Positions 1-17,331 of a stretch of DNA of 17,331 bases are shown piece after piece (within the stretch, counting starts at the first letter, position 1; each line of letters starts with the position of its first letter). This stretch comes from Promethearchaeota archaeon. Lineage in GTDB: Archaea; Asgardarchaeota; Lokiarchaeia; Sigyniarchaeales; SOKP01. The stretch spans positions 1 through 17,331 of the forward strand of contig JAHLWH010000082.1 in assembly GCA_019058015.1 (NCBI GenBank). The letters run 5' to 3'. Below the pieces are notes generated by a model. The model was given only the letters and a program-made list of their open reading frames with translations, did no database searches and was not told where the DNA came from. Made by a program: the position numbers and the translations under genes.

Positions 1-1
1 C

Positions 2-414: not shown

Positions 415-423
415 AATTTAAAA

Positions 424-440: not shown

Positions 441-503
441 TCTTAGACTCATTTGTTAATTTATAAACAAGATTTTTTATAAAAAATAATAGAGTTGTAA
501 ATA

Positions 504-1019
504 ATGGGCACTGGAAAAATTATAAGTATTTTAGCTGGGATTTTAATTATAGTCGCTACTTTTGTATTATCTTGGTTTACAGTTGCTGGTCCCGAATATG
601 CTTATGGTATTGGATTAGTAAAGAATATAATGGGAATGTTTACAGATGCTGCAACATTAGCAACTTCATGGGGGGTTGAAACATTTGTAATTTACATTGT
701 AGCAATTGTGTATATTTTATTCTTGGTTTCTGGAATTTTAGTGCTAATCGGGGCAAAAGTTCGCGTACTGGCAATAATAGGAGCAATTATACCTATACTT
801 TTATGTTATGCGATCATAGCGGGTGCTTTTAATATTCCACCAGATTTTTATCCTTATATTTCAGTATTTCTAGACTCTGAACCTCTAGTTGCAGGTATTA
901 TTCCTTTCGATTTACCTTTAGCTCCTGCCAATGCATCAGCAACAGTATCTCTTGGGACTTATGTGCTTCTTGCAGGCGGTATTTTAGGTCTTATTGGCGG
1001 AATTATGGGTCGAGATTAA
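504..1019 (+). CDS. Hypothetical four-TM membrane protein
   Basis: 171 aa ATG ORF with about four hydrophobic segments and a Gly-rich C-terminal helix (GGILGLIGG). No family recognised with certainty. Confidence 0.8.
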   Translation: MGTGKIISILAGILIIVATFVLSWFTVAGPEYAYGIGLVKNIMGMFTDAATLATSWGVETFVIYIVAIVYILFLVSGILVLIGAKVRVLAIIGAIIPILLCYAIIAGAFNIPPDFYPYISVFLDSEPLVAGIIPFDLPLAPANASATVSLGTYVLLAGGILGLIGGIMGRD

Positions 1020-1037
1020 AAAATTTAAAATTTAAAA

Positions 1038-1062
1038 TTTATTTTTTTCATTTTTACTTTTT
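1038..1062 (+). terminator. Archaeal poly-T terminator
   Basis: T-tracts (tttatttttttcatttttacttttt) just after the stop at 1019, between convergent genes. Confidence 0.5.
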
Positions 1063-1087
1063 GAAAACGTTATCTTTAAGCTGGAGT

Positions 1088-2371
1088 TTAATTGTGACGT
1101 TTATGCTTAATTCGATTTAAATAGATTTTTAAAAATATAAAAATTATCAATCCAATTGAGCAAATGAACACCCCTGCAAAAAATGATACTTGATAGGCAA
1201 AAATTTCTTCTCTGCCTTCACTGATCAAAAAGTCAATTAAGGGACCGGAGATAATGGTGCAAGCCAATCCCCAAGAAAGGAAAAACGTAGTGTTGTATAC
1301 TGCAAACAACTTAGCTCTCTTTTTTGGGGGCATTAAAGCTGAGGCAAAAGCATATGATGATGCCATAATTAAAACATCGGCAATTCCAATTAAAAAACTC
1401 CCTGTGAATATCAGCGGTAAATACATAGAAACAGCCGTAATTATAATTGCAAGCATACCTATAAAGGTTCCGAGGATTAAAGCAACCGCATGTCCTAATT
1501 TTTTGCTTAATAATCCTGCAAAAAATCCAATCATTATATTTGCGATTGAGCGAGTGTTTGCTATAAAACTTAGCAGAATACTATCTACTGCTAAACCAGA
1601 TTCCAAAGTTAAAAATTGCGAATAAGTTGTCGCTATAGAATTCCTACCGAAATTGATAAATATCAAAGCAATGATAAAAACTATAAAAATAGTTGTGTTG
1701 TTTTCATTATTCTGATCATTATTATTGGAAGCAATCTCCAATTTTTCTATTGGATTAATTCCACCCTCCGGAGTGAATAACATGGGAATAGTAGATACAA
1801 ACATGACAAACGATGCAACAAAAAATAACGGTCCATTCCGAAATCCTAAACCATTGGCATATAATAATCCACCGATTGAGATTCCAATTATACGCCCTAC
1901 TCCTCCAAGACTGATTAAGTTACCCATTATTCTACTTCTATCTTTAAACGGGTAGAGATCGGATAATAAAGCACTCCAACCAATATTGGACATGCTCCAA
2001 AAGATTTCTACACAAGCAAGTCCAATAATAATTACATACCCTGCAATAAATAAATCGGCTACCATTGAATGAATAAACCAAACAGAAATAGTTCCAATGC
2101 CAGCCAAAACTTCACCCATTATGATTAATGTTCTACGTCGCTGAAATTTATCAGATAATGGACCCCAAACAAGGTTCTGAAAGATTACACTCATTATCAT
2201 GGGAAGAGTGGCATATAGAGTAGTCTCAGTCACAGACAAGTTCAAATAAAATCTTAAATAAATAGATAAATAGGTGTAGAACAGCCCTCGTCTAAACATT
2301 GCAAGCATTTGAAAAGAGGTTAGACCAATAAATGTGCGTGATAATGATATTTGATGTTTTTTAATTTCCAT
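1088..2371 (-). CDS. MFS transporter (12 TM)
   Basis: 427 aa. Motif A 'WGPLSDKFQRRR', second-half repeat 'GLLSKKLGH', and a hydrophilic central loop. Confidence 0.92.
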   Translation of the reverse strand: MEIKKHQISLSRTFIGLTSFQMLAMFRRGLFYTYLSIYLRFYLNLSVTETTLYATLPMIMSVIFQNLVWGPLSDKFQRRRTLIIMGEVLAGIGTISVWFIHSMVADLFIAGYVIIIGLACVEIFWSMSNIGWSALLSDLYPFKDRSRIMGNLISLGGVGRIIGISIGGLLYANGLGFRNGPLFFVASFVMFVSTIPMLFTPEGGINPIEKLEIASNNNDQNNENNTTIFIVFIIALIFINFGRNSIATTYSQFLTLESGLAVDSILLSFIANTRSIANIMIGFFAGLLSKKLGHAVALILGTFIGMLAIIITAVSMYLPLIFTGSFLIGIADVLIMASSYAFASALMPPKKRAKLFAVYNTTFFLSWGLACTIISGPLIDFLISEGREEIFAYQVSFFAGVFICSIGLIIFIFLKIYLNRIKHKRHN

Positions 2372-2518
2372 TTTTTGTTATATTAGTTAGTGTAGTGTTG
2401 TATTTCTACTATAGTGTTTTGATATTTTAGAATTTTATTTAAATTTCTCTTTATAAAAAATAAAATTAAAAGTAATTAGAGAGTAATTAATACATAAAAC
2501 TAAATAAGGTTAGAAAAT

Positions 2519-2995
2519 ATGGCAGAAAATCGAATTGAAATTGATCCTTATGAACATATTGATAAATTTTTCACAAGAGCTTCATTATTGGCGACAATGA
2601 GTAAGGATGGAAAACCGAATGTAATGTCAGTTCTTTGGAGGTCTATAGGTGAATTGTGGATGTATCCAGTAATTACTGTAGCAGTCTCACCTTCCCGTTA
2701 TAGTTATGAACTCTTAACAAAAGGAATTAGAGAGTTTACATTAAACGTTCCTTCAGATAAGATAAGCTCTGCTATTGATATTTGTGGTACGTATTCAGGG
2801 AGAAATACTGATAAATTTAAACAAGCAAACTTAACTATAATTCCGGGAAAACGAATTAAAGTTCCTACAATAAAGGATTGCGTGCTGAGTTATGAATGTA
2901 AAATAATTCACGAGACAGACTCAGGGAATATTGAACCACATCATTTATTTTTTGGTGAAATTCTTGCTGCTTATACTCTAAAGGAAGAGATTTAA
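2519..2995 (+). CDS. Flavin reductase-like FMN-binding split-barrel protein
   Basis: 158 aa with family motifs 'GKPNVM', 'SRYSYELL', 'EFTLNVP', 'CGTYSGRNTDKF', 'YECKI' and 'HHLFFGEI'. Confidence 0.9.
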   Translation: MAENRIEIDPYEHIDKFFTRASLLATMSKDGKPNVMSVLWRSIGELWMYPVITVAVSPSRYSYELLTKGIREFTLNVPSDKISSAIDICGTYSGRNTDKFKQANLTIIPGKRIKVPTIKDCVLSYECKIIHETDSGNIEPHHLFFGEILAAYTLKEEI

Positions 2996-3168
2996 AGTAT
3001 TTTTTTTTTAATAAATTCGAAATTATTCTTATATTAGTAATTTTCATTCACTTTTTTCGAAAATTTAGTTATCAATTTAAAAAAGCTTTTTATTTTTTTT
3101 CTCAAATTATTAACTGTATTCAAATATGAATTAAAATATCAATAAAAACAAAAAAATGTGTGATAAAT

Positions 3169-3996
3169 ATGGCAGAAGAAAAGAAATTTGAGCATATTGT
3201 TATAGAAAGAGTAGCTGATGGAAACTATGCAGTTATAAGTTTGAATCGCCCAGATAAGTTAAATGCACTTACTGCTCAAACATGTCGAGAAGTTGCCGAT
3301 GCATTAGAAAGTATGGAAATGGACCCAGAGGTCCGATGTGTTGTCCTTAGAGGGACTAAAAATGTTACTAAAAAACCTGCATTCTCTTCAGGTGCAGATT
3401 TATCAGCAGGATTTGGACCCGGATTAAACCCAAAAATTCCAATGCATATGGATTATTCGATGTTTGATCGTCATAGAAGTTATTTACGAATCGAAGCCTT
3501 TCCAAAACCATTAGTAGCTGCAGTAGATGGTTATGCTTTTGGTGGTGGCTGCGAACTTACATTAGTCTGTGATCTTGTAATTGCCAGTAAAAGAAGCTTT
3601 TTTGGATTCCCAGAAATTGTAAGAGGTATTTTTCCGGCAAATGGAGGCACTCAACGAATGGCTAGGCATATAGGACTCGGTAGAGCCAAGTGGATGATTT
3701 ATACTGGTGAAAGAGTATCAGCTGAAGATATGTATGATTGGGGATATGTTTCTAAAGTTGTAGATGATGACAAATTTGAAGAGGAAGTTCACAATTTGGC
3801 TTCAAAAATAGGAAAAGGGGCTACAACATCTTATTATTGTATAAAGAAAGCCATGAACTATGGAACTCAAGCGCCTCATTATATTGGAATCAATTTTGAA
3901 CAATTGGGATTCGCAGTGAATTCTCAAGCTAGTGATGTAGTCGAAGGAATTAATGCCTTTTTAAGGAGAAGAGAGCCTAACTTTAAAGGTATATAA
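3169..3996 (+). CDS. Enoyl-CoA hydratase/isomerase (crotonase) family
   Basis: 'LNRPDKLNAL', 'FSSGADL', 'AFGGGCEL' and 'FPE...GIFP..GGTQR' carry both catalytic Glu. ATG 3169 follows an SD-like GTGA (the ORF track uses GTG 3160). Confidence 0.95.
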   Translation: MAEEKKFEHIVIERVADGNYAVISLNRPDKLNALTAQTCREVADALESMEMDPEVRCVVLRGTKNVTKKPAFSSGADLSAGFGPGLNPKIPMHMDYSMFDRHRSYLRIEAFPKPLVAAVDGYAFGGGCELTLVCDLVIASKRSFFGFPEIVRGIFPANGGTQRMARHIGLGRAKWMIYTGERVSAEDMYDWGYVSKVVDDDKFEEEVHNLASKIGKGATTSYYCIKKAMNYGTQAPHYIGINFEQLGFAVNSQASDVVEGINAFLRRREPNFKGI

Positions 3997-4035
3997 GAAA
4001 ATAAATAATTCTATAAAGAAAATTTGATTAATATC

Positions 4036-4078
4036 TTATTTTTTTCCTTTTTTTCATTTGATTTTTATTTTTTTTCTT
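4036..4078 (+). terminator. Poly-T terminator after the hydratase
   Basis: Several T5-T8 runs 40-80 nt after the stop. Confidence 0.5.
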
Positions 4079-4272
4079 AAAGTGATTTTAAAAACGTAAT
4101 TTATTGTTAACCAGTAAAAAATTTAAGATTTTAACAATTCTATTTTCAATTTCATCATATTTTTTGGTCTTTTTAGAAATAAAATGTTAAAGATTAAAAA
4201 AAAAATAAGATATATTTATATGTCTTAAAAATAAAAAAAACTATTTTATATTCAAAAAAAAGGTTGAAATAT

Positions 4273-5448
4273 ATGGTCGATGTTAAGAAAATAGTTGTAG
4301 TTGGCAGTGGTCTTATGGGCAATGGAATTGCACAAGTAAGTTTAATGGCTGGCTATAATGTGACTTTAGTTGATATTAAAGATGAGTTTCTTGATAAAGC
4401 TTTTGCTAATATTGAAAAAGGTCTCAAAAAATCTGAAAGTAAGGGACAATTAGGGGAGGGGGTAACTGCTGACGCTCTTATGGCAAAGTTGAAGAGAACA
4501 TTAGATTTAGCATCTGCTGTAAAAGATGCAGACTATACAATCGAAGCAGTCGTTGAAAACATGAAAGTTAAAAAAGAAGTTTTCAAAACAATGGCAGAAA
4601 ATTCTCCTGCACACTGTATTTTAGCAACAAATACTTCTACAATGAGTATTACTGAGATTGCGAAAGATTGTGGAAGACCTGAAAATGTCATCGGTATGCA
4701 TTTTTTTAATCCCGTTCCTTTGATGCGATGTATTGAAGTAATTGCTGGTGAGAAAAGCTCTGAAGAAGCTATGGAGACAGGAATGGCTGTTTCAAATTCA
4801 TTACCTTGTTTAAGAGGAAATAGATATGTTGCTAAAGTTTTAATAGACAGGCCTGGATTTATCGTAAATAGAATGAACGCCCCTGGTCAAATATATTTAA
4901 GCTGGGTCTTTGATCAAGCCAAAGAGAAACAAATACCATGGAACCAAATAGATGCTGACGGTGGGCATGCAATGCCGATGGGTCCATGCGAATTATGTGA
5001 TTATGTTGGATTGGATACTATGCATCATGTAATGGAATATTATGCAGAAACACTTTCACCCAATTTTAAACCAGGAAAAGTTATCTCAGAACTAGTTGAG
5101 GCAGGAAATCTAGGTGCTAAGACCGGTAAAGGCTTTTATGATTGGTCTGGAGGAAGACCAAAAATTGACAAATCGCAAAAAGCAGGATTGTTTGACCTTC
5201 AAACTATGATGGCTATTATGTTAAACGAAGGTTGTAGGATTTTAGAGGAAGGTGTAGCTTCTGGATTTAAAATCATTGATGATGCAAATATGGCAGGTAT
5301 GAATACACCTGGACCTTTTGGTGCTGGCAAAAAGAATTTCGAAGCATGGTCAAAATTATTGGATGAAATAGCAGACAAGACGGGAGCGGAATATTTAAGG
5401 CCTTGTGAGCTTATGAAGTCAGGTGGCTTCGTGAAAATGCGAAAATAA
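4273..5448 (+). CDS. 3-hydroxyacyl-CoA dehydrogenase (NAD), paralogue 1
   Basis: Rossmann GSGLMG, 'EAVVE', 'TNTSTM', catalytic 'GMHFFNP', 'PGFIVNR', 'LGAKTGKGFY' and a second C-terminal helical domain. ATG 4273 is preferred over TTG 4264. Confidence 0.95.
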   Translation: MVDVKKIVVVGSGLMGNGIAQVSLMAGYNVTLVDIKDEFLDKAFANIEKGLKKSESKGQLGEGVTADALMAKLKRTLDLASAVKDADYTIEAVVENMKVKKEVFKTMAENSPAHCILATNTSTMSITEIAKDCGRPENVIGMHFFNPVPLMRCIEVIAGEKSSEEAMETGMAVSNSLPCLRGNRYVAKVLIDRPGFIVNRMNAPGQIYLSWVFDQAKEKQIPWNQIDADGGHAMPMGPCELCDYVGLDTMHHVMEYYAETLSPNFKPGKVISELVEAGNLGAKTGKGFYDWSGGRPKIDKSQKAGLFDLQTMMAIMLNEGCRILEEGVASGFKIIDDANMAGMNTPGPFGAGKKNFEAWSKLLDEIADKTGAEYLRPCELMKSGGFVKMRK

Positions 5449-5469
5449 ATTATTAGAAAAATATTAACA

Positions 5470-5498
5470 TTTTTATTTTTTTCTTTTTTTTCTTATTT
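5470..5498 (+). terminator. Poly-T terminator after paralogue 1
   Basis: tttttatttttttcttttttttctt starting about 22 nt after the stop. Confidence 0.5.
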
Positions 5499-5542
5499 AA
5501 CATTATTCCTATTAAATAAATATTGGAAATTATTTACAAATT

Positions 5543-6733
5543 ATGTTTGATATTAGCAATATTAAGACATTTACAGTAATTGGCGCTGGTACTATGGGTC
5601 GAGAAATTGCACAAGTAGCCCTCATGGCTGACTTTGAGAAAGTTATATTGACCGATATTGAAAAGGATGTAATGAATAGAGCTGAAGAATATATTATCAA
5701 TGGACTTAAGAGGCTTGAAGCTAAAAATAAATTAGGTGAGGGAGTTAGTACTGAAATGATCCTGGCAAAATTAGTAAAAGAAACGGATTTAATAAAGGCA
5801 GTATCAAATGCAGATTTCGTGATTGAAGCAGTTCCCGAAATTATGAAGATAAAGCAAGAAGTATTTGAGAAATTGGGTAAATTTTCACCAGAGCATACAA
5901 TTTTAGCATCAAACACATCAACAATGAGTATAACAAAAATAGGAGAACGTTCAGGAAAACCTGAAAAGGTAATAGGTATGCATTTCTTTATTCCTATTGT
6001 AGTTCTTAGGCTAATTGAATTAATTAAAGGAGAAAAAACATCTCAAGAAACAATGGGTATTAGTTATGCGGTTGGAATGAAATTACCAGCCCTTAAGGGA
6101 AAAAGATTTATTGTTCAAATTGAAAAAGAAAGCCCAGGATTTATCGTAAATAGATTAACAATTGGAGGTAATATGTATTTAAATTGTGTTGTTGATGAAG
6201 CATTCGAGAAAGGAATTCCATGGGAAGATGTTGATGCTGATGCTGGAGATTTAACACAATGGGGTCCTTTAGTAAAATTTGATTTTCTCGGCTTAGATGT
6301 AATATATCATTGTCAAAAATATTTTGAGGAGGCTCTCTCCTCAGATTTTAACCCAGGAAAAGTCATTACAAACCTTGTAAAAGAAGGTAATTTAGGAAGT
6401 AAAACTGGCAAGGGTTTTTATGAATGGACTGCAGATGGAAAACCTAAAATAAAAAAGGGAAAAAAAGCAGGGCTTTTTGATCTTGAAACTTATATGGCTG
6501 TTCAATTAAATGAAGGTTGTAGATTATTAGAAGAGGGAGTCGTTTCTGGTTATAAAATAATTGATGATACAATGTTGGCAGGTATGGATATGCCAGGTCC
6601 ATTTAGTGCTGGAAAAAGAAATTATGAAAAATGGGCAGAATTGTTAGAACAATTAGCAAACAAGACAGGAAAAGAATATTTTAGACCTTGTACTCTGATG
6701 AAATCGGGTGGTTTTATTAAGATGCGAAAATAA
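5543..6733 (+). CDS. 3-hydroxyacyl-CoA dehydrogenase, paralogue 2
   Basis: GAGTMG, EAVPE, SNTSTM, GMHFFIP, PGFIVNR, LGSKTGKGFY. Colinear with paralogue 1 and shares the KMRK end. Confidence 0.95.
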   Translation: MFDISNIKTFTVIGAGTMGREIAQVALMADFEKVILTDIEKDVMNRAEEYIINGLKRLEAKNKLGEGVSTEMILAKLVKETDLIKAVSNADFVIEAVPEIMKIKQEVFEKLGKFSPEHTILASNTSTMSITKIGERSGKPEKVIGMHFFIPIVVLRLIELIKGEKTSQETMGISYAVGMKLPALKGKRFIVQIEKESPGFIVNRLTIGGNMYLNCVVDEAFEKGIPWEDVDADAGDLTQWGPLVKFDFLGLDVIYHCQKYFEEALSSDFNPGKVITNLVKEGNLGSKTGKGFYEWTADGKPKIKKGKKAGLFDLETYMAVQLNEGCRLLEEGVVSGYKIIDDTMLAGMDMPGPFSAGKRNYEKWAELLEQLANKTGKEYFRPCTLMKSGGFIKMRK

Positions 6734-6831
6734 AAGATTAAAATATTACAAAAATATAATCGAATTTATTTGAATAATTTAATATAACGATTTTAAATAA
6801 AGAAAAGATTTTAAACTAAAGGGGAAAAGAG

Positions 6832-8019
6832 ATAATCGATATTAGCCATATTAAAAATATTGTTGTAGTTGGAGCTGGTATAATGGGTCTCGGTATCACT
6901 CAATCTGCATTATGGGGTGGTTTTGAGAAGGTTGTCTTAAATGATATTAAAATGGAACTAATTAATAATGGAGCAAAAAAGATTAAGGATGGATTGAGAA
7001 AATCTGAATCTAAAGGACAGTTAGGAGAAGGTATCACTACTGATGCGCTTATACTAAATCTGGCTAAAGAGGTGGATCTTGCAAAAGCTGTTGTAGATGC
7101 TGATTTTATATTTGAAGTAGTTACTGAGGATTTGAAAATTAAACAAGAAGTATTTAAAAAATTAGGAGAAAATGCACCTGAACATACTGTTTTTGCATCC
7201 AATACCTCAACTATAAGGATAACAGAATTGGGAAAAGCTTCAAATCGACCTGAACAAGTAATAGGTATGCACTTTTTCCTCCCTCCATATCGTCAAAGAG
7301 GGATTGAAATAATGAAAGGTGAAAAAACTTCTGATGATACTATGGAAATTTGTATGGCTGTTGGTCAAAAATTACCATGTCTTAATGGGAAAAGAGTGAT
7401 TGCTCAACTTGAAAAAGAAAGCCCGGGATTTATTGTAAATAGGCTACTTCTATCCGCCCAAATTTATTTTAATTGGATTCTTGATCAAGCAGAGGAGAAT
7501 GGGGTTTCATTTGAACAAATTGATGCAGATGCAGGTAAATTATTGTTAATGGGTCCATGTGAATTATCTGATTATCTAGGATTAGACACTTTTTATAATA
7601 GTATGAAATCATTTGAAAAAATACTTTCTCCAGATTTTGCTCCTGGAAAAGTCCTTACAAAATTGGTTTCGGAGGGAAATTTTGGAAAAAAAACTGGGAA
7701 AGGATTTTATAATTGGATTAAAGGAAAACCCAGAATAGATAGATCAATAAAGGCTGGACTGTTTAAAACAGAAATGATGATGGCTATTCAATTAAATGAG
7801 GGATGTAGGCTTTTAGAAGAAGGAATTGTTAAGGGATATAAGATTATTGATGATATCATGTTAAATGGCACTGGTATGCCTGGTCCATTTAGTGCTGGCA
7901 AACGTAACTATGAAAAATGGACTAAAATGTTAAATAAATTAGCGGATCAGATAGGAAAAGAATATCTTAGACCTTGTAAATTATTAGAGTCTGGAAATTT
8001 TATTAAAATGAGAAAGTGA
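6832..8019 (+). CDS. 3-hydroxyacyl-CoA dehydrogenase, paralogue 3 (probable ATA start at 6832)
   Basis: Same motifs (GMHFFLP). The annotated ATG 6883 lies inside the GxGxxG motif. The upstream frame reads (ATA)IDISHIKNIVVVGAGI, aligning with MFDISNIKTFTVIGAGT of paralogue 2. An in-frame TAA sits at 6817. Confidence 0.9.
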   Translation: MIDISHIKNIVVVGAGIMGLGITQSALWGGFEKVVLNDIKMELINNGAKKIKDGLRKSESKGQLGEGITTDALILNLAKEVDLAKAVVDADFIFEVVTEDLKIKQEVFKKLGENAPEHTVFASNTSTIRITELGKASNRPEQVIGMHFFLPPYRQRGIEIMKGEKTSDDTMEICMAVGQKLPCLNGKRVIAQLEKESPGFIVNRLLLSAQIYFNWILDQAEENGVSFEQIDADAGKLLLMGPCELSDYLGLDTFYNSMKSFEKILSPDFAPGKVLTKLVSEGNFGKKTGKGFYNWIKGKPRIDRSIKAGLFKTEMMMAIQLNEGCRLLEEGIVKGYKIIDDIMLNGTGMPGPFSAGKRNYEKWTKMLNKLADQIGKEYLRPCKLLESGNFIKMRK

Positions 8020-8068
8020 GTAGCTAAAGAATTTAAATTATTTAGAGAGAAATTTCTAATCGATTTTA

Positions 8069-9141
8069 TTATTCTATTGCTGAAGTATCTCCCTCTTGGA
8101 GTATAACTCTAATTTTTTCAGCCTCTTTGAGAAATTCATTTCCTAAACTATCATCACCCAATTCAAAGCATAAATCTGCTATTTTTTCACAATATTCTAA
8201 AGCTTCTTCAAACCTTGAGTTAGCAAGTGCTGATTCTGCCTTTTCTAACATAGTATCTCTTTCAAATAATGGTCTTAATAAAGGACTTACATCTCCACTT
8301 ATTTCTAAGATATCTGCAATTATATTAATCATTTTTTCTCTATTACTTGGATCAATAGCAACCATCTTGTAAGTTTTTGTACCTTAAATTTTTTCAATTT
8401 CTATAACGGGAAGTGCTCCTGGTAAATCTAGCTTATTACCAATTATAGCCGCATGAGTATTTGGTGCCTCATCTTTAATTAAATCTAAAAAAAATCTACT
8501 TTTTTCAACATTTTCTAGAGTAGAATCCGTAATTATGAGCACCCCATCACTTCCTCTAATAAATTTATTCCATAAAAAGCTGAATTGCTCTTGACCGGCA
8601 AAATCCCACAGTAAAAACTGCAATTTCCCGATTTTAATTGTCGATACCTCTCCAGAGATAGTAGGAACATGTTCCGTTGGGATTTCTTCCGCTCTAATTA
8701 ACCTTGTAGTTGTAGTCTTTCCGACACCAGAAAATCCGACTAGTGAGATTTTTGGTTTTAAATTACGGTGTATTGCATCTAATGTTGGGTCAAATAAATC
8801 AAAAGTATTAGTATCAAATTTACCATCTGCTAATATATCAGAGAAAAAAGTAAGAAATTCTTCTTTACATTTCAATATCTGGTTTCCAAGTTTTCACAAG
8901 ATAGGGATAAACTGCTTAAATAGATAACTATCAAACCTAATTCTTTAGATGTTGTATAAACTACTCTTGATTTATAATAATCGAAATAATTAGTTTTATC
9001 GGTAGGTCCCTTAAAAGCATCTTTAGATATTTGGTCTAACAAACTTTGAAAGAGTTCTTTAGTAACTGCTTTTCCAAAATTGCGAAAATATAATAAATTA
9101 TTGTCTTTATAGATATAAACTTGTCTTAAAATTAAAAACAC
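8069..9141 (-). pseudogene. Interrupted longin-like domain + Arf/Rab-like small GTPase + C-terminal helical domain (about 355 aa if repaired)
   Basis: Three ORFs join into one gene: a 1-nt frameshift within 8875-8893 and an in-frame TAA at 8384-8386 (EKI*GTKTYKMVAID, same frame). G1 GFSGVGKT, G2 PT, G3 WDFAGQE, G4 NKLD; the G5 region lies after the stop. The longin-like call rests on the beta-beta-alpha-beta-beta-beta-alpha pattern. Confidence 0.8.
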
Positions 9142-9524
9142 CCTATTGAGATTAATAAGTATTTAATGCAAGTTTTTACTTTCTTTATCTCATAATGAAA
9201 AATTTGAAATTTAAATTTATTTACAAAGTATTTTTCTATCAAATAAATTTGTAGATATAGGACTGAGAGTAATGAAAATACTTTTTAGAGATTATTTTTA
9301 TTTATTATGAGAAATATTTATATTAAAATTCAAGATTATGACCAGTAAAAGAAAATTTCTATTCCAGGGTGTTATTAGATGATATTCAAGATGCTTTTAA
9401 TTTCTTTTTTGATGACCATTATAATGCAGCTAACATGAAATATAGAAAAAAAATAGTCCTAGAAGATTTTGAAAAAGTTAATAAAGGAAAAAAATAAAAA
9501 AAATTGTAAAATGTATAACATTTT

Positions 9525-10469
9525 TCACATCTTAATTAATTGTCCAATAGCATCCATTAAAGTTTCTTTTTTAGGAGCCCCTTTCAGTAATTCCGATTTA
9601 ACTCTGTCAGCTAATTCTTGAGGTGTAAATTTCTTTCCATTATTGCTGATACTATTGTAAGTGTGCCATCCTTGAAAGACCCATACTCGATCTGCCACCA
9701 CTCGAAATACTTCACCGTTTATTCTTTTAGCATCATCAGAAGCTAAAAAGACAACCATTGGAGCTATATTGACTGGATTAAACACATCAAAGCCACTTTC
9801 ATCAAATTTATTCATGACTTCAACCATTTGGGGAGTTGCATCAGTTGTAAGTCTTGTTCTCGCTACCGGAACAATGCAATTAACTGTCGCATATTTCTTT
9901 AACTCCATCGCGGCAATAACCGTAAATGCTGCGATTCCTGCTTTTGCAGCGCCGTAATTCGTTTGCCCCATATTTCCTAATAAACCTGCATCAGAAGCGG
10001 TGTTGATAACCCTTCCAAAGTTTTTTAATGATGGGTCCGCTTTACATCGTTGCCTAAAGTAATTAACAGCATGGCGAGTCATATTAAAGGTCCCTTTCAA
10101 ATGAACAGCTATTATATCATCAAATTCTGCTTCACTCATGTTAAAAAGCATACGATCACGGAGGATTCCTGCGTTGTTTACCAAGATATCTAGTTTTCCA
10201 AATTCTGATATCGCTTGATCAATCATTCCCTTGGCTTTATCAAAATCTGTTACTGTATCGTAATTACCAACGGCTTTTACACCCAACTTTATACACTCTT
10301 CAGCAACCTCGTCAGCGATTTTTTTTTCAGAACCAGATCCGTCAAACGCTGCTCCTAAGTCATTAATTACTAGGTTGCAACCTTCTTTTGCCATGGCTAA
10401 GGCTTCTTCACGACCTAAACCTCTTCCAGCACCAGTTATAATTGCAACCTTTCCATCTAACAATCCCAT
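9525..10469 (-). CDS. Short-chain dehydrogenase/reductase, MFE-2/HSD17B4-like hydroxyacyl-CoA dehydrogenase
   Basis: TGAGRGLG, 'VINDLG..FDGSG' insertion, NNAGILRD, VHLKG, GNMGQTNYGAAK (YxxxK). Confidence 0.92.
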   Translation of the reverse strand: MGLLDGKVAIITGAGRGLGREEALAMAKEGCNLVINDLGAAFDGSGSEKKIADEVAEECIKLGVKAVGNYDTVTDFDKAKGMIDQAISEFGKLDILVNNAGILRDRMLFNMSEAEFDDIIAVHLKGTFNMTRHAVNYFRQRCKADPSLKNFGRVINTASDAGLLGNMGQTNYGAAKAGIAAFTVIAAMELKKYATVNCIVPVARTRLTTDATPQMVEVMNKFDESGFDVFNPVNIAPMVVFLASDDAKRINGEVFRVVADRVWVFQGWHTYNSISNNGKKFTPQELADRVKSELLKGAPKKETLMDAIGQLIKM

Positions 10470-10603
10470 ATTTCGATATCCCTCTTATTATGTATTTTAA
10501 AACTCTTTTTTGTTATATTTAAAAAATTTGATGGAACTTATTTATTTCTTATCAAATGATTTAATATTTTTTAAAAATAGAATAAAACAAACAAATTCTA
10601 AAT

Positions 10604-11329
10604 TTATAATATCTCCTTATTTACTTTTTTAATTCCAAAAATCAATTCCTTATTTTTATCTAAATAATTATGACCAAAACCTTTAATCTTTCTAAGTGGT
10701 CCCTCAATTCCCTTTGGATTTCCGGTTTTGGTATATATAGTAAATGAGTGTTTAATTGCTTTGAGAACTTTATAAGGAGTTTTAAAATGATCAATCAATT
10801 GGACTGCTTTTTTTGGACCAGTATCATAAAGTCCTTCAATGATAAAAGACATTCTTTCTTCAATAGATAAACCTTTAGGCGCTTTTCGAGAAATTATTGG
10901 TGCTTTATCTTTTATTTGTTCTCTTATTGCAATTCTTTCAATCACGATTGCAGTATCATTAATATTTCTGGTAGGGATCACACTGATTCCTAATTTATAT
11001 GAAACATATGCTAATGCTCCATAAATTGAACTTATTTTCATTCCGGTATTATCAAAGACCTCGTCATTTAAGCCTTCAATTATAAGAATTGGTGTGGAAT
11101 ATGTATCTTTTAACCTTAAAAGTTGCTCAAACAAGCGATTATCCATAATCGATGTTACAAAATCAAAACCAGTCTTACGTTCTATGGCAATTTCATTAGT
11201 GATAATAATATCTGCAACATCTAATTGCTTAGTTTGCAGTAATATTTGATCCTTCTTTTTGGAAAATATATCTATCAATTTCCTTTCGCGATTATCCAAA
11301 ATAATTTGGAGGAGATTATTTGAAGCCAC
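10604..11329 (-). CDS. xpf: ERCC4-domain structure-specific endonuclease (short XPF/Mus81 type, nuclease + HhH2)
   Basis: 'IILDNRE', 'LDVADII', 'IERKTGFDF..SI.D.RLFEQ', 'LIIEG' and HhH-like 'GLYDTGPKKA' and 'IKGFG'. Start moved to GTG 11329, behind SD AAGGTG. Confidence 0.88.
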   Translation of the reverse strand: MASNNLLQIILDNRERKLIDIFSKKKDQILLQTKQLDVADIIITNEIAIERKTGFDFVTSIMDNRLFEQLLRLKDTYSTPILIIEGLNDEVFDNTGMKISSIYGALAYVSYKLGISVIPTRNINDTAIVIERIAIREQIKDKAPIISRKAPKGLSIEERMSFIIEGLYDTGPKKAVQLIDHFKTPYKVLKAIKHSFTIYTKTGNPKGIEGPLRKIKGFGHNYLDKNKELIFGIKKVNKEIL

Positions 11330-11398
11330 TTTAATACACCTTGAAAAAATAAATGATTTTAGATTTAAATAAGCAATGACTGACAAAATTTTTTTATT

Positions 11399-12217
11399 CT
11401 ATTCAATGGACTCTTTAAATTCCACTCGCTCTCCCGTATCGACAATTCTTCTAACTCTTTGCACATTTACTTTACGCATTTCTGTATTATTTTTAAATTT
11501 TCGAGCAGGTTGGCCAATATAAGTCCAATCTTTTTCTAACCTTTGTCCTATATTAGTCATTGCCCAAACACCAAGAACAGAACCCTTTTCCATAACAGTT
11601 CCGGGAGAAACAACAGCATAACCTCCAATTATGCAATGATCTCCAATTATAACCTTTTTAAGAAGCATATAATCTCCAATAACAATACTAGAAAGAATTA
11701 TAGCACCCTGTCCAACCATAATATTTTTTCCAAATTCTACAAACTCATAATCTACCCATCCATCAAATAAAGTTGATTTAAAATCAGCCTTCATTCCACA
11801 AATTTTAAACGCGAGGTTTGTGATCCATGGGACCGGGAAAGAATTCCATATATAAAAAATAAATTTTTTAATAGTTGCACGAAAGCAATAGTAAGAATAA
11901 TCTTTATCTTTAAGACTAATTTTAAAGATTCCTTCTCTTGGTTTATGGATTAAATTTAAAATAATTAATAGACATTTACCTACTCCTAAAGTTATAAGCA
12001 AAAAGCAAAAATACCAAGCCAAAATATCGATCGGCAACCTAATAATCATAAAATTTAGAATTGTATTTTTCAACACATTACCATAAAATGTAAAAAAAAG
12101 ATATGTAGTAGGAGAAAGGGATATAAAAATCAAAAAAACATAAATTATACTAAATCTTTTCGCGATCGGAGGGCTTGTTGTAACAGGAACCTCGTCAGAA
12201 TTGTGATTAATCTCCAA
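11399..12217 (-). CDS. Membrane-anchored left-handed beta-helix (acyltransferase-like) protein, one TM-TM-LbH unit
   Basis: Two N-terminal hydrophobic helices, 'HKPREGIF', hexapeptide repeats (FGKNIMVGQGAII; IGDHCIIGGYAVVSPG), ending 'YIGQPAR'. TTG start behind GGAGGT, overlapping the upstream gene by 11 nt. Confidence 0.85.
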   Translation of the reverse strand: MEINHNSDEVPVTTSPPIAKRFSIIYVFLIFISLSPTTYLFFTFYGNVLKNTILNFMIIRLPIDILAWYFCFLLITLGVGKCLLIILNLIHKPREGIFKISLKDKDYSYYCFRATIKKFIFYIWNSFPVPWITNLAFKICGMKADFKSTLFDGWVDYEFVEFGKNIMVGQGAIILSSIVIGDYMLLKKVIIGDHCIIGGYAVVSPGTVMEKGSVLGVWAMTNIGQRLEKDWTYIGQPARKFKNNTEMRKVNVQRVRRIVDTGERVEFKESIE

Positions 12218-13883
12218 TATCTATACCTCCTAAATATTTTTTTAATTCTTCTTTAGAAATTCTCCTTAATGGAAAACCAGCATAAAAACCATTATCTCCC
12301 AATTTATCTAATTTTACAGTAGCACACATCGGTAATAAAGTGGATTTTTCACCAACTTCCGTTCCTGGGAAACCTCCACAGTAAGCTGATAATACAGAAT
12401 TATTACCAACTTTAACTCCAAAAAATGTTATATTTTCCTCTCCAAAGAAACCATCAACCAGATGATTGGTTAGATAACAAAATTGACCAAAATAACAATT
12501 TTCTCCAGTATTTAAAAATTCCTTAGTAATAAATTGGTCTTCGAATGTTGTTCTTTTTCCTATTTTATTAGCGCCTATAAAATTTAACACCCAATTAGTT
12601 AGCCAAGGAAATGGACTTTTTGAAAATGCTAATACTGGATATTTTAATAAGAAGGAACGGTGATGATAGAAATTTAATTCTTTTGATCCAAAATTCCTAT
12701 CTAATACTCCTTGTCTTGATGGAGAAAGTTTTTCACTCCACCGATATAACAATTTTGTGAATAATGCCACAAAAAATAGATGCAATAAATACAAGCCCAT
12801 GAGGACAAGTGGCGTAATAAATAATAAAAATTGTGAGAATAAATTTGTAAAATTAACCCACCCGAAAGGAGTGCTAAAAAGATAAGGTATCAAAACTTCA
12901 TATAGAAAGAAAAAAAATGGAATTGCAGGAATTAAAAATGACCCGCCTACATTTAAAATAATTACTGGAATGTAAATATGGAATTGAACTCTTATATGGT
13001 GTTGATTTTCTTTCTTTAAATTATTGGTTTGTTGCTGAACATCTGATTTATCATAAATTAAAGTTTCTGCATGGACATTTTGATATATATCTTTACTATC
13101 GCTTTTTTCAAATAATATTGCCTTAAGATTATCAATTTTTTCATTAACAGTATAATCCCCAATTTTTATTGCTGGAGTTCCTTTATACACACAGCCAGCC
13201 TCTAAGACTTGATTTATATGGGTTGAAGATACCGCATTTAAAATAGCACCCTTTCTAAATTTTGTTCCGGGCGCAACTAAAGAATGAGCACCAATTATTG
13301 AATCATCTTCAATGATTGTTTTTTGAATAATCAAATAATTATCAATGATAATTGCCCCCATTACGACACTTCCTACACCAACAATCACATTTTTCCCAAA
13401 TTCAATGAATTCGCAATCGATCCATCCTTCAAACATGTAATTATTGAAATTTGTTTTCACGCCAAACACTTTAAATAAAATATTATCTAAATATGGCATA
13501 GGAAAGTTATGAGTTATCCATACAGGCCATTTTTTTATAAGCGCTCTTATACTCCAATAAATATAATCTTTATTATCTTTACTTCTCTTAAATACACCTT
13601 CTTTTGGCTTGTGAATTAAATTAACAACGATTAGAAATATTTTTGCTATAAATATTGATGAGAAAATTATAATTAAATAGCAAAATAAGAGTTCTAACGG
13701 AAAGAGAAGATAAAAAATTATAGTTATGGGATTTGTAAAATTAGATAGAAAAATCCAAAAACTAATTAAAGCTGGGTAAAAGCTTAGAGTTATAATACTT
13801 AAATAAATTAATATCAATCTTTTCTTATATGGTAAAGTATTTGTAGTAAATGGTCCAACTCTTAGTGAAGCCGGGATTGAGAT
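12207..13883 (-). CDS. Membrane-anchored left-handed beta-helix protein, two TM-TM-LbH units (probable ATC start 13883; TTG 13817 alternative)
   Basis: Internal duplication: TMs-'HKPKEGVF'-LbH-'YKGTPA', then TMs-'PSRQGVL'-'GANKIG' LbH-'YAGFPLR'. Unit 1 is clearly paralogous to the downstream gene. Confidence 0.85.
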   Translation of the reverse strand: MSIPASLRVGPFTTNTLPYKKRLILIYLSIITLSFYPALISFWIFLSNFTNPITIIFYLLFPLELLFCYLIIIFSSIFIAKIFLIVVNLIHKPKEGVFKRSKDNKDYIYWSIRALIKKWPVWITHNFPMPYLDNILFKVFGVKTNFNNYMFEGWIDCEFIEFGKNVIVGVGSVVMGAIIIDNYLIIQKTIIEDDSIIGAHSLVAPGTKFRKGAILNAVSSTHINQVLEAGCVYKGTPAIKIGDYTVNEKIDNLKAILFEKSDSKDIYQNVHAETLIYDKSDVQQQTNNLKKENQHHIRVQFHIYIPVIILNVGGSFLIPAIPFFFFLYEVLIPYLFSTPFGWVNFTNLFSQFLLFITPLVLMGLYLLHLFFVALFTKLLYRWSEKLSPSRQGVLDRNFGSKELNFYHHRSFLLKYPVLAFSKSPFPWLTNWVLNFIGANKIGKRTTFEDQFITKEFLNTGENCYFGQFCYLTNHLVDGFFGEENITFFGVKVGNNSVLSAYCGGFPGTEVGEKSTLLPMCATVKLDKLGDNGFYAGFPLRRISKEELKKYLGGIDIGD

Positions 13884-14014
13884 TTATTTCTCACTTCTTC
13901 TTATTTGCTAAATAATTGGAAAAAATATATAATCATTATAATATGTTTAAAATTTATTAATCTTCCTTAAATTGATAATTGAATTGAAAAAAACGCATAA
14001 ATAATTAGAAATTA

Positions 14015-15559
14015 TCAAAGATCTATGCAATTAAAGCATAAATCCATAGAATGAACGATTAAAGGAAAATCCTTTATATCACAATTAGGTAAAATAAAAT
14101 TTTTTAAAGCAAAAAAATTATTCATAGAGGGTGTTTGTATAGATACACTTCCTAAATTATTTTTTCCTGGAAGATCTGAAGTCTTTACGATATAAACCAA
14201 TTCTCCTTGAGGGGCTTCTACAACAGAAATTCCAATTTTATCAGCAATCAATTTGATATTTGCAAAATCAAGAACCTCAATTTTGGTAGTATCATTTTTA
14301 AGATAATCTATAGCCCCTTTAATAATAGAAACAGAATTTTTTAATTCCCATAATCTAACCTGAATGCGAGAATAAGCATCTCCTCCATTAAATGTTACAA
14401 CTTCCCATTTATCGATTATATCTTCATCTAGATAGGAATTATATGGAGAAAAATAGCGAACATCGTAGATATGGCCTGATGCTCGAACATTTGGACCAGT
14501 TATTCCTGATTCTAGAACATTCTCTTCTAATAATGTACTTAAACCCTTAAACTGTTTTTTAAGTGTAGAATTATAGATGCTATTATATATATTTTTAAAT
14601 GACGATGAGTAAATTTCCTCGACAGTTTCTCGCAAATCCTCTAATGAATACCAGAGTATATCTTTCACATATCCTATATAATTTAACTCTTCAAAATACC
14701 TTATGCCTAATTCTTTTTCTAAAAAATTAAGAAAATACAGAACTTTCTTAAGAAGAGTATGATATTCCTTAAAAGAATAAGTTAAATACATTAAATTTAC
14801 AAACCAAAATATGTGATTTGTTATTCTCTCCAACTCACAATAAATGGTTCGAATCATTTTAACTCGATTTGACACCGAAATATTAATAATCGATTCCATT
14901 GCTAAAGAATAAGCTAAACTATGATGGAATGAACTAGTTGAGCATATTTTTTCTACAAGTGCTAGATTTTCTTTACCCCAATTCTTATATTTCAACAATG
15001 GGATAATTCCTCTATACAGCCAACCTGTTTTAAAATTTACAGACTTTATAATATTTTTTTCTAAATTACAGTGAAAATAGTTATTAATATGGTGAATTCT
15101 ATTAAAAACACCTTGAGCAAGAATATTCTTTGCAGAATGTGCTGGGAATAATTTAACTGGAAGATTATACAAGCTCTCTTCAAGTTCTTCCTTAAAATAT
15201 AAAAATTTAATCCCATATCTTTTAGATATTTCATCTTCATAACTTTCAACTTGAGGATAAGCAACCCTTACTGAATCAATTTCGTTGGAATCTTTATCCA
15301 CTTCAGTAATTACAAATAAATATTGATTATCTGGAATGTATTCGTTAAAATATTCATAAATTACTTCATAATTACTTTTAAAATCATTGATTAGTATGTT
15401 TTTTAAATTAACTGACTTTTCACTAAAAAAAAAGGCGATATCTCTTACCCTTGATTTATTTATGTAAAATATATTAGCAAAACCACGAGTAGGGGTGTCT
15501 TTTAATTCTGTCCCAAAATAATTTTTAAATTCGCGTACTAAACCAGTGTATATCTGCAT
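14015..15559 (-). CDS. Degenerate group-4 [NiFe]-hydrogenase large subunit / NuoC-NuoD (HycE-like) fusion homologue
   Basis: N-terminal NuoC-like part ('YEDEISKRYGIKF'), then 'IRTIYCELERITNH', 'GITGPNVRASG..YDVR...PY', 'GDAYSRIQVR', 'VEAPQGEL', 'TPS' and terminal 'DLCFNCIDL'. Confidence 0.85.
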   Translation of the reverse strand: MQIYTGLVREFKNYFGTELKDTPTRGFANIFYINKSRVRDIAFFFSEKSVNLKNILINDFKSNYEVIYEYFNEYIPDNQYLFVITEVDKDSNEIDSVRVAYPQVESYEDEISKRYGIKFLYFKEELEESLYNLPVKLFPAHSAKNILAQGVFNRIHHINNYFHCNLEKNIIKSVNFKTGWLYRGIIPLLKYKNWGKENLALVEKICSTSSFHHSLAYSLAMESIINISVSNRVKMIRTIYCELERITNHIFWFVNLMYLTYSFKEYHTLLKKVLYFLNFLEKELGIRYFEELNYIGYVKDILWYSLEDLRETVEEIYSSSFKNIYNSIYNSTLKKQFKGLSTLLEENVLESGITGPNVRASGHIYDVRYFSPYNSYLDEDIIDKWEVVTFNGGDAYSRIQVRLWELKNSVSIIKGAIDYLKNDTTKIEVLDFANIKLIADKIGISVVEAPQGELVYIVKTSDLPGKNNLGSVSIQTPSMNNFFALKNFILPNCDIKDFPLIVHSMDLCFNCIDL

Positions 15560-15696
15560 TTATTTTCTCTAATAGTTATTAGTTTTTTCTTTATTTAAAT
15601 TATTTTAAATATTGTAATATCTTAAAAAATTATAAGAACTCTTTTTAGATTTAATTTAAAATCAAAAATATAAATTGAGATTATTAAAGTATCAAT

Positions 15697-17019
15697 CTAG
15701 ATCAATATAAAGTCGATAAATCGAATTAAATAGAAAAGGATAAGAGAAATTATTATGAAACCAACAGATAAATAAATTGCCTTTTTTACCAGTATGGAAT
15801 ATGGAACGGGTTTTTCCTCATATAAACCTAATATTTTGAAAATTTGTACGATATCAATAAATCCAATAACATTCTCGGATTTTCTCTTTAACATGAAAGT
15901 TTTTGATTTATTAAAAAGTTCTAAGATCTCATCTCTCGTCATTTGGGGTTTTGCCTCCTTTATTAAGGCAATTATTCCTGCACAAATTGTTGCTGAAATT
16001 GAAGTTCCTGATATCTCATAAGTATCAATTCCTTTAACTGGAACCGTAATCTTAGAACCAGGAAAACATACTTCCGGTTTATAATTATTCACATCAATTA
16101 AATCCTTTCCACTGAAATAAGTGATGTTCCCTTCTTTAGATATTGCACCTACAGTTATTGCACTCTTTGAGGCTCCAGGACTCCCTATAGTATTTGATTC
16201 AGGTCCAAAATTACCTCCAGAGGCAACGATAATGATGTTCAATTTATTAAATAAAATATCACAAGATTTGGATAAAATATCATTTCCATTAGATGATGGA
16301 TTTAAAGTGGAACTGCATATTAGAAGGATATCGAATTTGATATTATTTTCCAAGATATGATCAAATACTTCTAAAAAATCAGAGAAATAAGCAACTCCCG
16401 CATTGTTAAATATTTTAAAATCAATTATTTTGACATCGGGGCATAATCCAATAAATCCTTCACCAAATTCACTTGATTTATTCTTTAAAATGTGTGTTAA
16501 TAACGTTGCATGGAAATTTTCATCGGATGGTTCTTCATTAGTGAAATTAATTTGATCAATTGAAGAATAATCAAGCGATTCGAAATTTTTACCTATTCCT
16601 GAATCTAAATGTGCAATTGAAACATTTTTCCCGGTAAAAGGGAGCAAGGAATTTTTAAATCTCTTAATATTTAATAATTCAGAGACTTTATTCATTGATT
16701 GATAAAGTCGTTGATTTTCTTCTATACATTCTATAAGATCATCTTCCGATAAATCAAAAATCGTTTTCGGGTCAATTTCCATTAACAATGAGGGGACTAT
16801 TTCAAAAGTTGATATAATTTCCAGATTTTTATGATTCTTAATGAATTTTTTTCGATCAGAATCATTTTTAAAGGAGATTATTGTTTTAATTTTAGATTCT
16901 TTAGCTAATATTAACTGATCTAATGTACTTTTCTCAATTCTTTCTTCGATTTCCTTAGAAATTACTGGTTTTAGTTTTATTTTTTCAAGAAAAGAAGGAT
17001 GTATTTTATCAACATTCAT
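15697..17019 (-). CDS. S8 subtilisin-family serine protease with I9-like propeptide and C-terminal TM helix
   Basis: Triad: 'AHLDSGI' (Asp), 'NFHATL' (His), 'SGTSISA' (Ser); oxyanion 'GGNFGP'; 'SPGAS..AITVGA'; hydrophobic C-terminus. Confidence 0.88.
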   Translation of the reverse strand: MNVDKIHPSFLEKIKLKPVISKEIEERIEKSTLDQLILAKESKIKTIISFKNDSDRKKFIKNHKNLEIISTFEIVPSLLMEIDPKTIFDLSEDDLIECIEENQRLYQSMNKVSELLNIKRFKNSLLPFTGKNVSIAHLDSGIGKNFESLDYSSIDQINFTNEEPSDENFHATLLTHILKNKSSEFGEGFIGLCPDVKIIDFKIFNNAGVAYFSDFLEVFDHILENNIKFDILLICSSTLNPSSNGNDILSKSCDILFNKLNIIIVASGGNFGPESNTIGSPGASKSAITVGAISKEGNITYFSGKDLIDVNNYKPEVCFPGSKITVPVKGIDTYEISGTSISATICAGIIALIKEAKPQMTRDEILELFNKSKTFMLKRKSENVIGFIDIVQIFKILGLYEEKPVPYSILVKKAIYLSVGFIIISLILFYLIRFIDFILI

Positions 17020-17039
17020 TTTTAAACATACAGAAGGTC

Positions 17040-17330
17040 TTAAATTTTAAATTTGAGTTCTTTTATAACTTCTTCAACAGTATAATTATGATGCACTAAT
17101 AGAGAGATTGCGTTTACCATTTTGGTTGGATCCTCTGCTTGAAATACATTTCTACCCATTGCTACTCCAGATCCTCCAGCCTGAATGGATTCATATATCA
17201 TATAAAAAACGTCTATTTCTGTATTCATTTTTGGACCTCCTGCAATAATCACTGGAACCGGGCAACCTTTAACAATTTCATGAAAAGAATCAACATCCCC
17301 AGTATAATTTGTTTTCACAATATCCGCACC
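17040..17330 (-). CDS. Class I (DhnA-type) aldolase, C-terminal part (FBP aldolase or ADH synthase); truncated by window end
   Basis: 'GADIVKTNYTGD' (Schiff-base Lys), 'PVPVIIAGGPK', 'GVAMGRNVFQ'. Confidence 0.9.
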   Translation of the reverse strand, partial: GADIVKTNYTGDVDSFHEIVKGCPVPVIIAGGPKMNTEIDVFYMIYESIQAGGSGVAMGRNVFQAEDPTKMVNAISLLVHHNYTVEEVIKELKFKI

Positions 17331-17331
17331 G

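Follow-up and report, generated by a model that had tools for sequence, protein, structure and literature searches.

The window, a 17,331-nt stretch of DNA from a Promethearchaeota archaeon of the Lokiarchaeia (assembly GCA_019058015.1, contig JAHLWH010000082.1, positions 1 to 17,331 of the forward strand), carries on its minus strand two overlapping genes, A and B. Together they encode three repeated units (u1, u2 and u3), each composed of two transmembrane (TM) helices followed by a left-handed beta-helix (LbH) domain. The arrangement recalls the polymerising half of ε-poly-L-lysine synthetase (Pls) and its relatives, nonribosomal peptide synthetases of the membrane. The features of the locus are as follows; residue numbers such as H452, H346 and N451 refer to the 536-residue reading of the gene A protein.

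12207..13883, minus strand: gene A (units 1 and 2), 558 residues from ATC at 13883, or 536 residues from TTG at 13817
13113..13883, minus strand: unit 1, with N-terminal arm, TM1 and TM2, a strand, two helices and a beta-helix; the least conserved unit
12210..13031, minus strand: unit 2, with TM3 and TM4, two helices and a divergent beta-helix; highly conserved
12450..12473, minus strand: LTNHLVDG loop of unit 2 (residues 449-456, 536-residue reading) with the candidate catalytic His452
11399..12217, minus strand: gene B (unit 3), 272 residues from a TTG start, with a PVTT arm, TM5 and TM6, two helices and a beta-helix with a GDH motif
12225..12230, minus strand: GGAGGT, Shine-Dalgarno sequence of gene B within the 3' end of gene A, 7 nt 5' of the TTG at 12215-12217
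13890..13896, minus strand: AAGTGAG, similar to a Shine-Dalgarno sequence, 6 nt 5' of the ATC start of gene A

The list of open reading frames (ORFs) places both genes on the minus strand with 11 shared nucleotides, exactly where a first-pass annotation of the locus had described two overlapping genes with GGAGGT and TTG inside the upstream one. The 5' end of gene A has a less usual form. The TTG at 13817 is replaced by TTT in three close relatives (L017, L051 and L018), and the frame upstream of it reads a TAA stop (13884-13886), then ATC, then the conserved peptide ISIPASLRVGPFTTN; this stop-ATC-ISIPASLRVGPF reading is the sequence basis of the 5' end. The stretch ISIPASLRVGPFTTNTLPYKKR after the ATC matches the way in which single-unit paralogs begin, with "MSVPSSLRVGPF..." (alignment A1). 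A start-codon survey of 72 loci (71 and the window) found the N-terminal peptide in 67, with ATT as first codon in 50, ATA in nine, ATC in six and ATG in two. The start position is hence occupied by ATT, ATA or ATC in 65 of 67 orthologous loci; no ATG, GTG or TTG is present between the in-frame upstream stop and the peptide in 61 of the 67, and a GTGA-type Shine-Dalgarno sequence lies 5-10 nt 5' of the start in 55. Since the TTG is not conserved and the stop-ATC-peptide reading is, gene A most likely begins with ATC at 13883, and these data bear out the upper coordinate that the annotation had given. Under standard ORF calling a conserved N-terminal arm of 22 residues is lost.

Comparison by blastp identifies the three units as true repeats, far above chance: u1 and u3 share 39.8% identity across 231 residues (E 1.2e-60), u2 and u3 25% (E 8.6e-17) and u1 and u2 22% (E 4e-12). 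The motif string anticipated for each unit was recovered in all three. The second helix is followed by a K/R-P-x-x-G turn (HKPKEG, SPSRQG and HKPREG in u1, u2 and u3), an F/S-P-x-P-W/Y motif comes next in the order FPMPY, SPFPW and FPVPW, and a closing Y-x-G-x-P reads YKGTP, YAGFP and YIGQP; every unit also has a helix rich in Tyr and Trp and hexapeptide turns. The LTNHLVDG sequence had been assigned to the last unit, which needs correction: it lies in unit 2, the middle one, which occupies the C-terminal half of the gene A protein. Hydropathy and an AlphaFold2 (AF2) model agree on two long hydrophobic helices per unit, that is, six TM helices in three pairs over two proteins. According to hydropathy, AF2 helices and unit alignment, each pair precedes a soluble domain of about 180 residues, as the Pls/PosA layout demands.

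The AF2 model of A (38-row alignment) has a mean predicted local distance difference test score (pLDDT) of 74.1 and a predicted template modelling score (pTM) of 0.75. Unit 1, at a pLDDT of about 90, consists of helices 2-25 and 33-68, a strand (74-77), helices 83-103 and 108-117 and then the beta-helix; the helices of unit 2 span residues 279-314, 326-364, 378-399 and 404-414. In Foldseek searches the soluble part, N-terminal helices included, matches galactoside and maltose O-acetyltransferase structures with a probability of 1.00, and the best hits are 3ftt, 3hjj and 1ocx (TM-score about 0.57 of target, E 4e-5). The units share with LacA (1kqa/1krr), Maa (1ocx), 3ftt and 3hjj the fold of the soluble part, and unit 2 has, in an ambiguous register, a His loop between beta-helix turns. 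LacA and Maa enzymes are soluble homotrimers with three equal sites, whereas the Asgard pair has TM hairpins and three differentiated units, only one of which bears the His; sequence similarity to these enzymes is marginal (E 1e-4 to 1e-6) and nil for u2 at E<=0.01.

Pfam finds no adenylation (AMP-binding) or thiolation (PP-binding) domain in protein A or B, in line with the first-pass annotation, and scores Hexapep at 28.4 bits for B (cut-off 27) and 24.9 bits for A. The top NCBIfam match of both proteins is TIGR02353, at 49.7 bits for A and 35 bits for B, and neither reaches the curated cut-off of 423.1 bits; at E<=0.01 this family finds matches in all 14 control genomes. By this measure the Asgard pair falls outside the curated Pls family. 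Among 1.84 billion representative proteins, the A1 profile, built from 20 single units, had 6413 matches at E<=1e-3 and 95 at E<=1e-30. The following Pls-type and bacterial proteins are taken from the 150 matches listed.

P0284, 1713 residues: E 6e-28 over three stretches; adenylation domain and TIGR02353 at 471 bits, above the cut-off
P0324, 705 residues: E 7.8e-22 over three stretches; TIGR02353 at 612 bits, no adenylation or thiolation domain
P0261, 960 residues: E 1.0e-32 over three stretches; N-terminal SDR domain and three units
P0244, P0254 and P0302, 650-683 residues: E 2.6e-39, 1.0e-35 and 1.4e-24, three stretches each; three units, TIGR02353 at 157-184 bits

The Pls-like interpretation, which the first-pass annotation had proposed, is partly supported. 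In the excerpted text of PMC10522769, the AlphaFold model of PosA is described as three times a TM pair, two helices plus a strand and a five-turn left-handed beta-helix, packed with approximate three-fold symmetry; ε-poly-L-lysine synthetase, the δ-poly-L-ornithine synthetase PosA and PDAP synthetase share with the Asgard pair the three tandem units of TM pair and beta-helix, with a predicted pseudo-three-fold arrangement (PMC10522769, same excerpt). The layout matches and the family profile reaches true Pls synthetases such as P0284, but TIGR02353 remains far under its cut-off and the part of the profile that precedes the beta-helix, when used alone, has no significant similarity to true Pls proteins. 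Controls with partial profiles on a local database of 4307 sequences locate the signal: a beta-helix-only profile scores Pls-type units at 23.5-43 bits each, compared with 16-23 bits for soluble LbH proteins of the genome, and the columns before the beta-helix add 9-27 bits to the highest-scoring unit (from 43.4 to 59.6 bits in P0284 and from 24.9 to 51.6 bits in P0261). An hhalign comparison of the unit profile with the single sequence of P0324 aligned the beta-helix portion alone. On this sequence evidence, contributed mainly by the beta-helix, we read the Asgard units as genuine relatives of the Pls-type unit, to which they are identical in architecture. The system differs from Pls/PosA in that it lacks adenylation and thiolation domains and is split over two genes, or over three in paralogous cassettes. 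The stand-alone proteins P0244, P0254, P0302 and P0261, whose bacterial origin rests on hints from the Atlas search, likewise have three units and no activating domains; they combine the units in one polypeptide, unlike the Asgard pair, and the first three stay below the TIGR02353 cut-off. In P0244, the only such protein placed in our tree, the three units cluster together, and its triplication may therefore be independent.

A locus search with the A alignment returned 190 pattern matches and 132 relatives, and the best 80 of the 132 were used for comparison. All records among these 80 loci that name a taxon belong to an Asgard lineage, and the remainder are labelled "uncultured archaeon". A two-unit ORF is directly followed by a one-unit ORF in 69 of the 80 loci, with overlap of the two frames in 60 of the 69; six loci have three single-unit genes (1+1+1) and five are cut by contig ends or otherwise incomplete. 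Three proteins are natural u1-u2-u3 fusions, namely P0108 (805 residues), P0177 (797 residues) and P0059 (808 residues, N-terminally cut). The expectation that the two genes are co-conserved as a pair across Asgard genomes is thereby borne out. All 68 genomes sampled from the window's family have the LbH system, which is multi-copy there, and so do all 7 of a sister family. Over the phylum, E<=1e-20 is reached in 97 of the 301 genomes sampled and in none of the 76, 28 and 19 genomes of three other families.

The unit tree, a quick maximum-likelihood reconstruction with SH-aLRT support only, separates three Asgard unit classes (that of unit 2 starred, at 99), and each class receives one unit from every 2+1 locus. 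The exception is unit 1 of the window. Its place is an unresolved fork shared with the genes that come third in the 1+1+1 cassettes, outside the starred clade that holds the unit 1 sequences of other loci. The tree topology argues that the three unit types are old classes with one representative of each per system. The gene order of the 1+1+1 cassettes (u2-type, u3-type, u1-type) is a cyclic permutation of u1-u2-u3, as would be expected if the units form a ring. Additional paralogs are present in the window's own genome, and loci L097 to L100 comprise all four sets: two 1+1+1 cassettes (C105:11828-14358 and C96:238-3006), a two-gene set with units outside the three classes (C125:9298-10853) and a lone unit-2-type gene (C98:12485-13288). 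Two-unit proteins of 603-621 residues, a fusion form unlike gene A, occur within a few kb of 1+1+1 cassettes in three genomes (L093:8707-10536 and 11079-12944, L094:9566-11383, L095:14648-16459).

Prediction of the A+B complex with our own alignments gave ipSAE values of 0.75, 0.75 and 0.77, compared with 0.00 for the best of three controls. Of 157 solved complexes, 116 attain the pass mark, compared with 2 of 215 mismatched pairs; these counts apply only approximately to predictions with own alignments. At least 78% of contacts are common to the runs, and the partner pLDDT is at least 72. In the predicted complex B contacts u1 at residues 36-44 and 106-236 and u2 at residues 282-307, 389-396, 448-461 and 499-519, both in the membrane and in the beta-helices, and the N-terminal arm of B (residues 9-15, conserved P-x-T-T) docks on the beta-helix of u1. 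The supposition that the two proteins co-fold is supported by these results and, since B touches both u1 and u2, the ring would close. LbH enzymes are classically homotrimers, however, and it is conceivable that there is no hetero-ring at all, each unit type self-trimerises and the pair is an operon of related but separate membrane acetyltransferases. Such an arrangement would suit the PDB matches, which are to soluble LbH enzymes (their homotrimery is general knowledge), the lone and paired unit genes of the same genome (C98 and C125) and the bacterial single-unit relatives of 180-264 residues from the Atlas search. It is difficult to reconcile with the fusion of u1 and u2 in 69 of 80 loci, because two separate homotrimers would then clash, and with the proteins that fuse all three units; one member per class in each cassette, a His retained in u2 only, the poor conservation of u1 and the predicted contacts of B with both A units point the same way. 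We accordingly regard independent homotrimers as very unlikely and favor a ring of A and B, as suggested by the prediction and the fusions.

The three units are unequally conserved. Across 70 orthologous sets, the share of positions conserved to at least 95% is 7% in u1, 22% in u2 and 23% in u3. In unit 2 the loop N451-H452-x-V454-D455-G456...G459-x-E461-N462 is invariant (38 sequences), and its residues 448-461 contact B in the predicted complex. In the all-unit profile alignment, the four Asgard unit-2 sequences shown carry His in this column, and so do the second stretch of P0178, the C3 units of the Pls-type proteins P0284 and P0324 ("QTHLFED") and at least one unit each of P0244, P0254, P0261 and P0302; Asgard units 1 and 3 have a residue other than His there. 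Pls/PosA and the Asgard pair are thus alike in that the His loop is present in one unit only, which is C3 in Pls and u2 in the Asgard pair. P0302 has zero matches to the PDB at E<=1e-6, and its best one at E<=0.1 is LacA (1kqa, E 1.1e-4). In an uncertain register, the alignment brings the His loop close to "TGHPVHHE" of LacA (1kqa, E 1.1e-4), an enzyme whose catalytic base we take to be His115. Conserved polar residues also occur within the TM helices of units 2 and 3, with none in the helices of unit 1: unit 2 has conserved intramembrane Tyr, Ser, His and Thr, including a His at unit position 84 (H346) kept in 69 of 70 sets, and unit 3 has Arg57, Asp64 (70 of 70), Trp68/69 and Lys81 (70 of 70). 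Lys and Arg in units 2 and 3 number zero in the hairpin loops, three to five after the second helix and two to four before the first, a distribution that suggests a cytoplasmic location of the beta-helices. The restriction of the His to the middle unit suggests that the enzyme has only one active site, located where u2 meets u3. This site probably reaches towards the membrane, with unit 1 as a scaffold. The idea of asymmetric active sites fits this special, His-bearing unit.

A catalytic role is not the only conceivable function of an LbH assembly at a membrane. The gamma-carbonic anhydrase (gamma-CA) and CAL subunits of complex I are 2+1-type heterotrimers at the membrane, and PDB matches of the Asgard units include these subunits of plant and protist complex I (7ar9_x, 8iuf_G1 and 6x89_L2; E 1e-5 to 1e-4). 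The gene that adjoins the pair at 14015-15559 contains Complex1_49kDa and Complex1_30kDa domains, so that the pair could be a non-catalytic structural module, comparable to the gamma-CA heterotrimer on the membrane arm of complex I, which perhaps serves this upstream NuoC/NuoD-like protein. Like that assembly, the Asgard pair would be a membrane-seated LbH heterotrimer of differentiated subunits, but the sequence matches are weak and span generic beta-helix turns only, and gamma-CA and CAL are without the same kind of TM hairpins. Moreover, Asgard loci show no conserved complex-I-like gene link: the NuoCD-like neighbor recurs in only 2 of the 80 loci, both of the same genus. The best fold matches are O-acetyltransferases, and the conserved His/Asp loop and polar intramembrane residues fit catalysis better. 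A purely structural module is hence hardly credible, and an enzyme is the preferred interpretation.

The nature of its donor can be approached from the gene content of the genomes. The carrier domain PF00550 has no match in the window's own genome (94% complete) and, in the family at large, occurs in only 9 of 71 genomes, mostly in large ORFs of 881-3525 residues, with four matches in short frames of 88-102 residues. LbH acetyltransferases use coenzyme A (CoA) thioesters as donors, with active sites between subunits. Given that carrier domains are absent or rare while the LbH system is universal in the family, and that CoA is usual for the fold, the donor is more probably a CoA thioester than an amino acid on a tether. 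As a general rule tethered aminoacyl donors are unlikely, and so is the separate carrier acting in trans that the first-pass annotation had considered next to acyl-CoA. The same data bear on whether the pair is a Pls-like poly(amino acid) or amide polymerase, for which a separate activating enzyme, with or without a carrier, supplies aminoacyl units that are linked iteratively to a free chain exported through the helix bundle. The only studied relatives work in this way, as far as the excerpted texts of PMC9205021 and PMC10522769 describe them. The three-unit layout and the one-His-unit pattern are the same, the conserved polar TM residues of u2 and u3 could line a conduit, and the genome encodes 18 AMP-binding enzymes. 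However, none of these 18 matches is located on the window's contig (C74), and Pfam detects no AMP-binding gene in the 15 most frequent neighbor clusters. The scarcity of PP-binding domains compared with an LbH system in 68 of 68 genomes, the TIGR02353 scores far from the cut-off and the position of the Pls units in separate clades outside all Asgard classes speak against it as well. The system is archaeal and both universal and multi-copy in one family, unlike sporadic secondary-metabolite genes, and its donor is probably a CoA thioester instead of a tethered aminoacyl group. We therefore consider an aminoacyl polymerase of this kind quite unlikely.

Our preferred reading, held with moderate confidence as a whole, is a 1:1 ring of A and B with one u2/u3 site, a CoA-thioester donor and a membrane acceptor. 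The two proteins would form one membrane complex in which u1 and u2 (on A) and u3 (on B) close into a pseudo-three-fold ring, the N-terminal arm of each unit probably docking on the beta-helix of the neighboring one. As an LbH-type acyltransferase the assembly would be asymmetric, its only active site lying between u2 and u3. Unit 2 would contribute to this site the invariant N-H-x-V-D-G loop, in which His452 would be the general base, and unit 3 the facing wall plus the conserved intramembrane Asp and Lys; unit 1 would be mainly a scaffold. The donor would be a CoA thioester, whose pantetheine arm is identical to that of the Pls carrier domain, and the acceptor would be membrane-associated or passed into the helix bundle.

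The structural part of this reading is well supported, and several observations weigh against the whole. In the 4307-sequence database, a profile of TM helices and linker alone misses the three true Pls-type proteins P0284, P0317 and P0324 at E<=10 and retrieves only P0261 (E 4.9e-4). The u2 profile has zero matches to PDB sequences at E<=0.01, the beta-helix of u2 reaches a pLDDT of only 45-55 in the AF2 model of A alone, and its His can be placed against the catalytic His of LacA only to within about four residues. The pass of the complex prediction may partly reflect likeness to solved LbH homotrimers, because such enzymes are abundant among solved structures, and the AF2 model of the natural three-unit fusion P0108 is poor (pLDDT 49.8, pTM 0.42), with a four-row alignment that makes it uninformative. 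The CoA donor is argued from the habit of the fold family and from missing carriers, the enzymatic role of every family member is a prediction from sequences and models, and the gene context gives no consistent substrate hint.

What appears to be new is a relative of the Pls polymerisation domain that is carrier-free and split, with three subunits. Narrow full-text literature searches found no paper on its Asgard members, and sequence and fold searches of the PDB found no solved membrane Pls-like structure. We know of no catalytic residues in the polymerising half of the Pls/PosA enzymes. This half is presented without a solved structure in the excerpted text of PMC10522769. The Asgard system represents a natural dissection of the Pls machine, with three differently conserved units and one His loop, and its pattern provides a direct hypothesis for the site of catalysis in both systems. 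It also constitutes a core, multi-copy gene set in all 68 sampled genomes of the window's family, a lineage studied for the origin of eukaryotes, and any membrane modification or polymer that it produces would be relevant to the composition of the Lokiarchaeal envelope. A more far-reaching version, which we regard as unlikely, would be an archaeal polymerase or transacylase that uses CoA-activated monomers at the cytoplasmic u2/u3 site and threads its product or a lipid-linked acceptor through the six-helix bundle, to yield an unseen acylated lipid or a polyamide or polyester surface component universal in Lokiarchaeia. If this were true, the system would be a carrier-free, ancestor-like Pls machine, whose natural split into differentiated subunits shows which units are catalytic and which are scaffold.

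The gene neighborhood was compared across the same 80 loci. The tested flanks of the window's pair (NuoCD-like, ERCC4, S8 and SDR) recur in only two loci of the same genus, and the acyl-CoA cluster nearby, which had been taken as a functional link, is not a conserved neighbor. Elsewhere the 2+1 pair is accompanied by a divergent acyl-CoA dehydrogenase (39 of 80 loci), an alpha/beta hydrolase (40), a His phosphatase (38), a nitroreductase (35), a GNAT protein (31) and MFS_2 (29), and an acidic protein of about 119 residues without a Pfam family is located upstream on the same strand in 48 of 80 (for example L029:7419-7778). A homologue of the latter is encoded on another contig of the window's genome (C207:12347-12676). 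None of these recurrent neighbors flanks the window's pair, and we read their recurrence as inherited synteny instead of an operon. Among the same-genome paralogs, the C96 cassette adjoins a gene for a VTT/DedA protein, the lone C98 unit gene adjoins glycerophosphodiester phosphodiesterase and EamA transporter genes, and the C105 cassette adjoins an ADP-forming acyl-CoA-synthetase-like gene. These neighbors, which recur in none of the 80 loci, are weak hints at lipid or CoA chemistry. Relatives of a 556-residue protein without a Pfam match, encoded beside the C105 cassette, are likewise absent from the 80 loci. At 3 kb 5' of this cassette there is a TnpB-like gene (OrfB_IS605 plus a Cas12f1-like TNB domain; C105:7593-8801, corresponding to L097:1594-2802).

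Within the window, the 514-residue protein encoded at 14015-15559 on the minus strand combines Complex1_30kDa (NuoC-like), NiFeSe_Hases and Complex1_49kDa (NuoD-like) domains; its gene is situated between a subtilase gene and the LbH pair, and no further complex-I or hydrogenase subunit gene is present in the window. On the plus strand, at 3160-8019, a gene for an enoyl-CoA hydratase precedes a tandem array of three 3-hydroxyacyl-CoA dehydrogenase paralogs (394, 396 and 378 residues), and an SDR gene is located at 9525-10469 on the opposite strand. A small GTPase of the Arf/Roc family is encoded on the minus strand at 8384-8875, within the interval 8069-9141, and is flanked by two frames without a Pfam match, at 8872-9141 (4-nt overlap) and at 8069-8365.

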